DNA of 64,000 bases from Escherichia coli (lineage in GTDB: Bacteria; Pseudomonadota; Gammaproteobacteria; Enterobacterales; Enterobacteriaceae), in the NCBI RefSeq assembly GCF_036507355.1, contig NZ_AP027877.1, one strand, 5' to 3'. Below the pieces are notes generated by a model. The model was not told where the DNA came from. It worked only from the letters and a program-made list of their open reading frames with translations, and made no database searches. The position numbers and the translations under genes were made by a program. Shown here in pieces: positions 8,634 to 8,900 of this stretch (positions within the stretch are counted from its first letter, which is position 1; each line of letters starts with the position of its first letter).

Positions 8634-8900
8634 AAGGAGTCCCTCCGCACTGTCTGAAACAGTACAGAAATGTCTTCAGGCGTGGCGAAGCCTTACCTGA
8701 AGGTAATAAAGCTGAGCAGGGACGTTAAAACGTCACGGCCTTACGCATCCGGTAACGCCGTGAAAAGACGGGCTTACCGGAAAAGTTTTAATCTCCGTCG
8801 AGGGAGAGGCGTGGGATCAGGTTCCATATAACCTCCGGTAAGTGAAAAAAGCGCCGCAAATAATAAGGAGAATCCAATAATATTCGTAGCATCTATGGCG
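8634..8900 (-). promoter_or_regulatory. mgtA 5' leader (Mg2+/proline-sensing leader RNA containing mgtL)
   Basis: Long untranslated leader between the mgtL peptide ORF and the mgtA start; function assigned from known mgtA leader biology, boundaries approximate. Confidence 0.6.
8774..8827 (-). CDS. mgtL: mgtA leader peptide MgtL (17 aa, proline-rich)
   Basis: I translated ATG GAA CCT GAT CCC ACG CCT CTC CCT CGA CGG AGA TTA AAA CTT TTC CGG TAA = [17 protein letters not shown]. Confidence 0.85.

Follow-up and report, generated by a model that had tools for sequence, protein, structure and literature searches.

The window analysed here, a 64,000-nucleotide stretch of Escherichia coli DNA, carries the gene mgtA and, directly upstream on the same strand, the leader region that controls it. 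The mgtA gene (8633..5937, minus strand) encodes an intact Mg2+-importing P-type ATPase of 898 amino acids, as judged from the ORF list, comparison with E. coli K-12 and matches to the Pfam domains E1-E2_ATPase, Cation_ATPase_N/C and Hydrolase. The protein is identical to K-12 MgtA at 896 of 898 residues (the changes are V33A and C580Y). Gene order is likewise that of K-12, in which treB and treR are followed by mgtL and mgtA on the opposite strand, and then by ridA and pyrI. The 5′ leader of mgtA spans 8897..8634 (minus strand) and would be 264 nt long if transcription starts at 8897 (±2 nt), a placement that draws on the position of the –10 hexamer and on the numbering published for the Salmonella leader. 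An initial annotation of this DNA had described minus-strand positions 8634..8900 as the mgtA leader. This description is accurate: the mgtA ATG lies at 8633, and the interval comprises the leader plus approximately 3 nt.

This mgtL–mgtA control region is the already well-studied E. coli leader upstream of the Mg2+ pump gene mgtA, and the window offers no novel feature. Alignment to the K-12 MG1655 leader, which the initial annotation had proposed as a check, reveals 100% nucleotide identity from the predicted transcription start to the mgtA ATG, including all of mgtL. The corresponding K-12 MG1655 loci are b4702 (mgtL) and b4242 (mgtA), and RefSeq annotates mgtL in both K-12 and O157:H7. Under matching E. 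coli DNA, the annotation reads ‘mgtL: mgtA regulatory leader peptide MgtL’. Moreover, a covariance-model search yields a match to the Rfam family RF01056 (Magnesium-II, Mg sensor) at 8842..8727 (minus strand). This match scores 125.8 bits, where the gathering score is 40 (E=5.5e-25), and covers the full model (positions 1–115 of 115). The identification of the short ORF as a known regulatory peptide is thus upheld by agreement among K-12 identity, the RF01056 match, the Pfam MGTL match, the RefSeq mgtL annotation, the intact mgtA gene and the PhoP box.

When the comparison with K-12 MG1655 is extended to 412 nt, from the start of treR to the first mgtA codons, only two differences are evident. 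Position 8916, which is C in the window and T in K-12, belongs to the promoter spacer that separates the PhoP box from the –10 hexamer. Position 8969, which is T in the window and G in K-12, is located further upstream. Both precede the transcription start and are therefore outside the transcribed leader, where they could cause a slight change in PhoP-dependent output in this strain. The allele of the window is matched at 100% over the 412 nt in many strains, including O157:H7, O111:H8 and ATCC 8739. Because the same allele is found in many other E. coli lineages, it is K-12 that carries the less common version. Of 5426 complete E. coli genomes, 5425 carry the 412-nt region, 5423 have ≥80% of its length and 5115 match it with ≥99% identity.

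One genome record with partial coverage was inspected, that of the dolphin isolate E. coli GCU-H1 (NZ_CP178558.1, 4001-5118), in which an IS1 element lies just beyond the end of a 120-nt match. The match ends at the predicted mgtA transcription start, and mgtL and mgtA are absent along with part of ridA. Nine records labelled as plasmids also carry the mgtL–mgtA leader. Eight are 0.37–4.9 Mb in size, the ninth is 94 kb (NZ_AP023207.1), and all nine are non-mobilizable. Mobility of the leader on plasmids was considered and rejected, as the sizes of these records and the fact that all are non-mobilizable indicate that they are most likely mislabelled pieces of chromosome. Elsewhere in the window, further Rfam matches above the gathering score correspond to the ES239 sRNA (39098-39220, minus strand), the RpsF leader (51434-51518, minus strand), two copies of the REP-derived naRNA4 (19018-19095 and 25268-25346, both minus strand), ES036 (34330-34372, plus strand) and STnc450 (34452-34509, plus strand).

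The mgtL ORF extends from an ATG at 8827 to a TAA at 8774 (minus strand) and consists of 17 codons plus the stop codon: AUG GAA CCU GAU CCC ACG CCU CUC CCU CGA CGG AGA UUA AAA CUU UUC CGG UAA. It was read directly from the sequence, and is supported both by Pfam and by RefSeq annotation in identical DNA. Proline residues occur at codons 3, 5, 7 and 9, acidic residues occupy positions 2 and 4, and the peptide is identical to that of K-12. The ORF is preceded by a Shine–Dalgarno sequence, GGAGG (8836..8832, minus strand), that is situated within the 5′ arm of stem A. The peptide matches Pfam family PF17059 (MGTL) with 38.3 bits, above the cut-off of 25 (E=9.3e-10), and over profile positions 1–17 of 17. 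This match, together with nucleotide identity to K-12 and the RefSeq annotation, demonstrates that mgtL is not a chance ORF. The intact, proline-rich 17-codon MgtL that had been reported in the minus-strand leader is therefore present as described, and all four of its proline codons, at which a departure from the reference would have counted against the identification, are the same as in K-12.

A longer frame in the ORF list, 113 amino acids in length with a GTG start (9115..8774, minus strand), comprises mgtL and 96 unstopped in-frame codons upstream of it. It could be proposed that this ORF is a real gene and that MgtL is just its C-terminus, given that the reading frame is unbroken and has a GTG start. 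However, the Pfam MGTL profile matches only residues 97–113 of the 113-residue translation, and RefSeq annotation of the ORF is absent in both K-12 and O157:H7. Furthermore, the GTG at 9115 lies inside treR (9012..9959, plus strand), whose first 104 nt the ORF overlaps in antisense orientation, and to reach mgtL the frame has to traverse the PhoP box, the –10 hexamer and the predicted transcription start. The open in-frame stretch upstream of the mgtL ATG is also unconserved, ranging from 5 to 107 codons across 75 other enterobacterial loci. The 113-aa ORF is therefore an artefact, a by-product of the rule that takes the first start after a stop: Pfam recognizes its last 17 residues only, its start precedes the promoter and its extension upstream of mgtL lacks conservation. 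We consider a genuine 113-aa gene to be extremely improbable. The initial annotation had reached the same view, namely that the ORF at 8774..9115 is artefactual and that its final 17 codons are mgtL, and the Pfam match, the antisense start and the variable extension all concur. Marking the ORF in this way averts a false gene call. A second overlapping frame, a 34-aa ORF with an ATG start (8788..8892, minus strand) that covers mgtL in another frame, was likewise rejected, as most other genera lack it or have a much shorter version. It begins at leader nucleotide 6 and is probably meaningless.

Upstream of the leader, a consensus search identified a PhoP box at 8937..8921 (minus strand), a direct repeat of the form GGTTTA-tcgtt-GGTTTA that overlaps the –35 position of the mgtA promoter. 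This box, GGTTTATCGTTGGTTTA, is the only match to (T/G)GTTTA-N5-(T/G)GTTTA in the 64-kb window, where 0.04 matches are expected by chance, and its core, TGGTTTATCGTTGGTTTA, is the same as that of the Salmonella mgtA PhoP box given in PMC3335776. A –10 hexamer, TATTAT (8908..8903, minus strand), read from the sequence, follows 12 nt downstream. The term ‘architecture I’ has been applied to PhoP-dependent promoters that have a single box in direct orientation about 12 nt upstream of the –10 element, and was described for Salmonella mgtA (PMC3335776). The box, the hexamer and the 12-nt spacing between them in the window fit this arrangement, and we therefore predict, from the sequence motifs, that a PhoP-activated promoter with architecture I geometry drives the mgtA leader.

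From the position of the –10 hexamer and from the Salmonella numbering, we infer that transcription starts at 8897 ±2 nt. The mgtA leader of Salmonella is 264 nt long and has mgtL at nucleotides 71–124 (PMC6460261), and a +1 nucleotide at 8897 gives the E. coli leader the same length and places mgtL at the same leader nucleotides. A generic sigma-70 promoter scan of positions 8500..9100 returned no promoter, which is the expected outcome because the box for the activator PhoP replaces the –35 element.

The leader RNA is predicted to be highly structured, with a minimum free energy (MFE) for the full leader of –87.3 kcal/mol and a z-score of –4.27 relative to dinucleotide shuffles. The initial annotation had called for structure prediction of alternative stem-loops, and folding indeed reproduces stem-loops A and B and the alternative stem-loop C. 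Stem-loop A (leader nt 56–125; 8842..8773, minus strand), recognized from the Rfam consensus structure and from folding, encloses the whole mgtL ORF and is closed by an outer helix in which 8842..8832 pairs with 8783..8773. Stem-loop B (leader nt 135–165; 8763..8733, minus strand), recognized from folding and covariation, is the attenuator hairpin of the OFF conformer. Stem-loop C (leader nt 117–150; 8781..8748, minus strand), recognized from folding and pair conservation, belongs to the ON conformer. Stem C is made from the 3′ arm of A and the 5′ arm of B, and hence its formation excludes both of the other structures.

The mgtL Shine–Dalgarno sequence and AUG lie in or beside the 5′ arm of stem A, and the terminal CGG-UAA of the ORF is located in the 3′ arm, inside the sequence CCGGUAAG at 8779..8772. 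This invariant segment has two potential partners, as CCGGUAAG can pair either with CUUACCGG in the 5′ arm of A or with UUACCGG in the 5′ arm of B. Folded individually, the three stem-loops have energies of –21.6 (A), –16.5 (B) and –18.0 (C) kcal/mol. When the 5′ arm of stem A is masked, C replaces B in the MFE structure. Placement of a 28-nt ribosome-footprint mask at single proline codons did not flip the equilibrium fold to C, because the folding program closes stem A around the masked loop. The switch between A/B and C is a kinetic, co-transcriptional process and is beyond what equilibrium folding shows.

Additional sequence elements of the leader are found on either side of stem B and near the mgtA start codon. 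Pyrimidine-rich, G-poor windows flank stem B at leader nt 106–135 (pyrimidines at 19 of 30 positions) and at nt 166–200 (9–10 C and 3–4 G residues), and this composition, which is the sole property considered, is consistent with the description of rut sites for such leaders (PMC11552253). The Shine–Dalgarno sequence of mgtA, GGAGGG, was read at 8646..8641 (minus strand). In the MFE fold, the region that contains it, GGAGGGAC (8641..8646), pairs with GUCCCUGC at leader nt 174–181 (8717..8724, minus strand), and this modelled pairing suggests that translation of mgtA might be occluded when the leader is full-length.

For comparison across enterobacteria, a species-level genome collection was scanned once with a pattern that combines the 5′ arm of stem A with the first eight mgtL codons. 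The scan yielded 77 loci, of which 76 are genuine leaders. A locus from Rokuibacteriota has no ORF, represents a chance match and was left out. In 73 of the 76 loci the N-terminus of MgtA is encoded 155–314 nt past the mgtL ATG, and the records of the other three lack downstream sequence. Both in the window and in these 73 loci, the gene that follows the RF01056 element thus encodes a P-type ATPase of the mgtA type and has the element in its 5′ leader. One contig labelled Chryseobacterium sp. 18061 (Bacteroidota; CACSKA010000007.1) carries a typical enterobacterial mgtL leader at 6629-6661, with the same peptide as Citrobacter sp. 18056 from the same project and 287 of 310 nt identical in the leader region. 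This assembly is probably contaminated or mislabelled.

Conservation of the proposed RNA structures was evaluated by using an alignment of 73 distinct sequences from other Enterobacteriaceae together with the window. Across the 73 distinct leaders, the A+B structure is paired at 96.2% of positions compared with 36–49% in controls in which the structure was slid along the alignment, and eight of its base pairs exhibit compensatory changes, six of them among the ten pairs of stem B. Separated by stem, the proportion of paired cells is 97.4% for stem-loop A and 98.5% for B, and RNAalifold independently recovers stem B together with the outer helix of A. Stem C is paired at 87.5% versus 10–45% in slid controls over the same leaders and exhibits little covariation. 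Such scarcity of covariation is expected because the core of C must pair with two partners and is nearly invariant.

The reading frame is conserved as well. All 76 loci have an mgtL ORF of 16 or 17 codons, the length changes preserve the frame, and every ORF ends with an arginine codon and a stop inside the invariant sequence CCGGTAA (CCGGUAA in RNA). This conservation of frame and length provides indirect support for the prediction that MgtL is translated from the window, and direct evidence for its translation comes from the literature (bioRxiv 10.1101/2021.02.02.429294, PMC11282234). The constancy of the mgtL length and of its terminal Arg-stop is explained by the position of CGG-UAA within the invariant CCGGUAA arm that is common to stems A and C. 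The identity of the region, its ORF, its promoter motifs, the three competing helices with their conservation and covariation, and the conservation of the ORF frame are all found in the sequence.

These conservation patterns bear on whether the leader might operate purely as a Mg2+ riboswitch, wherein the RNA binds Mg2+ and picks A+B or C alone and the small ORF has no regulatory part. Rfam classes RF01056 as a riboswitch aptamer, the helices are conserved and covarying, and Mg2+-dependent folding of the RNA alone modulated Rho termination in vitro for Salmonella (PMC11552253). A device made of RNA structure alone, however, would not require an ORF that keeps to 16–17 codons with frame-preserving changes in 76 of 76 loci. 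Moreover, control of mgtA has been reported for mgtL translation, for the acidic residues and prolines of the peptide, and for EF-P and EttA (PMC11552253, PMC11282234, PMC6460261, bioRxiv 10.1101/2021.02.02.429294). Direct sensing of Mg2+ by the leader RNA is still debated (PMC11552253). Mg2+ binding by the RNA is compatible with the translation-dependent switch that we favour, and as the sole mechanism it is unlikely, with a probability that we regard as low.

The peptide itself exhibits an uneven pattern of conservation. Pro3, Pro5 and Pro7 were fixed by the search pattern, such that their presence in the 76 loci is no independent test, and these three residues are upper-case in the independent Rfam RF01056 consensus. 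Pro9 is kept in 53 of the 76 loci and replaced in the other 23. Residues 8–15 vary widely among the 76 loci, with residues 10–15 varying almost freely. The constraint on the C-terminal half of MgtL thus seems to come from RNA pairing and spacing and not from its amino acid sequence. What the 76 loci preserve is only an N-terminal M-D/E-P-D/E-P-T/A-P sequence, a length of 16–17 codons and the final Arg-stop. We tentatively propose, as a possibility that is more doubtful than well founded, that sensing is confined to approximately the first seven residues of the peptide, with the remainder serving as a spacer shaped by RNA pairing.

The best explanation for the region, and almost certainly the correct one, is that it constitutes the E. 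coli mgtL–mgtA regulatory leader, a magnesium control device with two layers formed by the PhoP promoter and the leader switch. According to the literature, PhoQ/PhoP turns on the promoter when Mg2+ is low, and high Mg2+ gives the A+B fold of the leader, whereas low Mg2+ gives C. In the first layer, low external Mg2+ would be sensed by PhoQ, and phosphorylated PhoP would then act on the GGTTTA-N5-GGTTTA box to initiate transcription from about position 8897. In the second layer, the nascent leader RNA would fold either as A+B (OFF) or as C (ON), with the choice set by the ribosome that translates the 17-codon mgtL ORF.

When cytoplasmic Mg2+ is ample, the ribosome would pass the difficult N-terminal E-P-D-P-T-P-L-P stretch and complete mgtL. 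Structures A and B would then form, the pyrimidine-rich RNA beside B would be exposed and transcription would end before mgtA. When Mg2+ is low, or when Pro-tRNA, EF-P or EttA is limiting, the ribosome would stall or drop off within the first six codons or so. Loss or stalling of the ribosome would uncouple translation from transcription and allow the 3′ arm of A to join with the 5′ arm of B as stem C, which would block B and permit RNA polymerase to continue into mgtA.

The dependence of this switch on Mg2+, proline, EF-P and EttA, as well as the ribosome destabilization by EPDP, are taken from the literature. Published work is likewise the source for the Mg2+-dependent change of conformation and of read-through into mgtA, in Salmonella and in K-12, whose leader sequence is identical to that of the window. 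Inefficient elongation through mgtL owing to its proline and acidic residues is reported to raise mgtA expression, and efficient elongation at higher Mg2+ to repress it (PMC11552253). In E. coli, the EPDP sequence intrinsically destabilizes the ribosome while the first six residues are being translated, and does so more at low Mg2+ or when the ribosome lacks bL31 (bioRxiv 10.1101/2021.02.02.429294). EttA stabilizes the ribosome that has Pro3 in its P site and thereby leads to repression of mgtA, and a toeprint at Pro3 is described in the same paper (PMC11282234). In Salmonella, loss of EF-P raises mgtA mRNA roughly 12-fold through the mgtL proline codons, with C favoured over B (PMC6460261).

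Given these observations, the leader might be viewed mainly as a sensor of proline or of hyperosmotic stress, wherein the ribosome halts at the four proline codons when charged tRNA-Pro is scarce and the response to Mg2+ is secondary. The presence of proline at positions 3, 5, 7 and 9 accords with this proposal, as does the dependence on proline and EF-P cited in PMC3335776 and PMC6460261. On the other side, Pro9 is replaced in 23 of 76 loci, and regulation in E. coli is explained by the acidic residues of EPDP and the Mg2+-dependent stability of the ribosome (bioRxiv 10.1101/2021.02.02.429294, PMC11282234). A primary role in proline sensing is therefore rather unlikely, albeit the more credible of the two alternative mechanisms considered here, and proline sensing is best seen as an added input to the same two-layer magnesium device rather than as an alternative to it.

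The one disputed step in this scheme is how transcription ends in the OFF state in E. coli. A scan for intrinsic terminators across positions 8500..9100 found none in the leader, and its sole terminator-like match (9059..9043) is antisense and inside treR. Rho-dependent termination is established in Salmonella. For E. coli mgtA, its detection was reported to have failed (PMC11552253), and another study notes that Rho dependence ‘may not be conserved in E. coli’ (PMC12360218), whereas a third applies the Rho-terminator model to E. coli (PMC11282234). Rho dependence of termination in the E. coli mgtA leader is thus disputed. The significance of the present analysis resides in correct annotation, namely the recognition of a textbook case of a leader that joins a promoter controlled by a two-component system to a translation-coupled RNA switch for control of a Mg2+ importer.

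The closest known system is mgtL–mgtA of K-12 MG1655, which shares with the window the leader sequence, the peptide, the PhoP box, the –10 hexamer and the neighbouring genes treR, ridA and pyrI. It differs by the two substitutions upstream of the start (8916 and 8969) and by the two MgtA residues noted above. The mgtA leader of Salmonella enterica is also closely similar, with the same length of 264 nt, the same position of mgtL at nt 71–124, prolines at codons 3, 5, 7 and 9, and stems A, B and C. The peptides are not uniform, as the MgtL of S. enterica subsp. arizonae, a locus aligned in our comparative set, is MDPEPTPLPRWRVFLFR, unlike that of the window. The MgtL peptide of S. Typhimurium is also different from E. 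coli MgtL. The Salmonella promoter has the same PhoP box core and 12-nt spacing, with a –10 hexamer of TATGAT there versus TATTAT here (PMC3335776). Termination by Rho has been demonstrated for the Salmonella leader, in contrast to the reports for E. coli that it was not detected or is possibly unconserved (PMC11552253, PMC12360218).

A second magnesium-related leader, that of corA in E. coli and Salmonella, follows the same logic, in that the uORF corL is situated inside a stem-loop A (PMC11552253). Its RNA likewise alternates between an OFF fold (A+B) and an ON fold, which is C+D in corA, and has pyrimidine-rich rut regions beside B (PMC11552253). Unlike mgtA, corA has a constitutive promoter that lacks a PhoP box, and its leader belongs to another Rfam family and precedes a different transporter gene. 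The uORFs also differ, as corL has a UUG start and a single conserved proline. More distantly, the mgtA leader resembles the trpL, hisL and tnaC attenuators, in which the progress of translation through a short uORF picks the RNA conformer and hence determines whether read-through occurs. In contrast with these attenuators, the scan of the mgtA leader found no intrinsic terminator hairpin with a U-tract. The signal differs as well, being the stability of the ribosome and its elongation through an acidic and proline-containing motif in mgtL, rather than the supply of a cognate amino acid read out by a run of identical codons as in trpL, hisL and tnaC.
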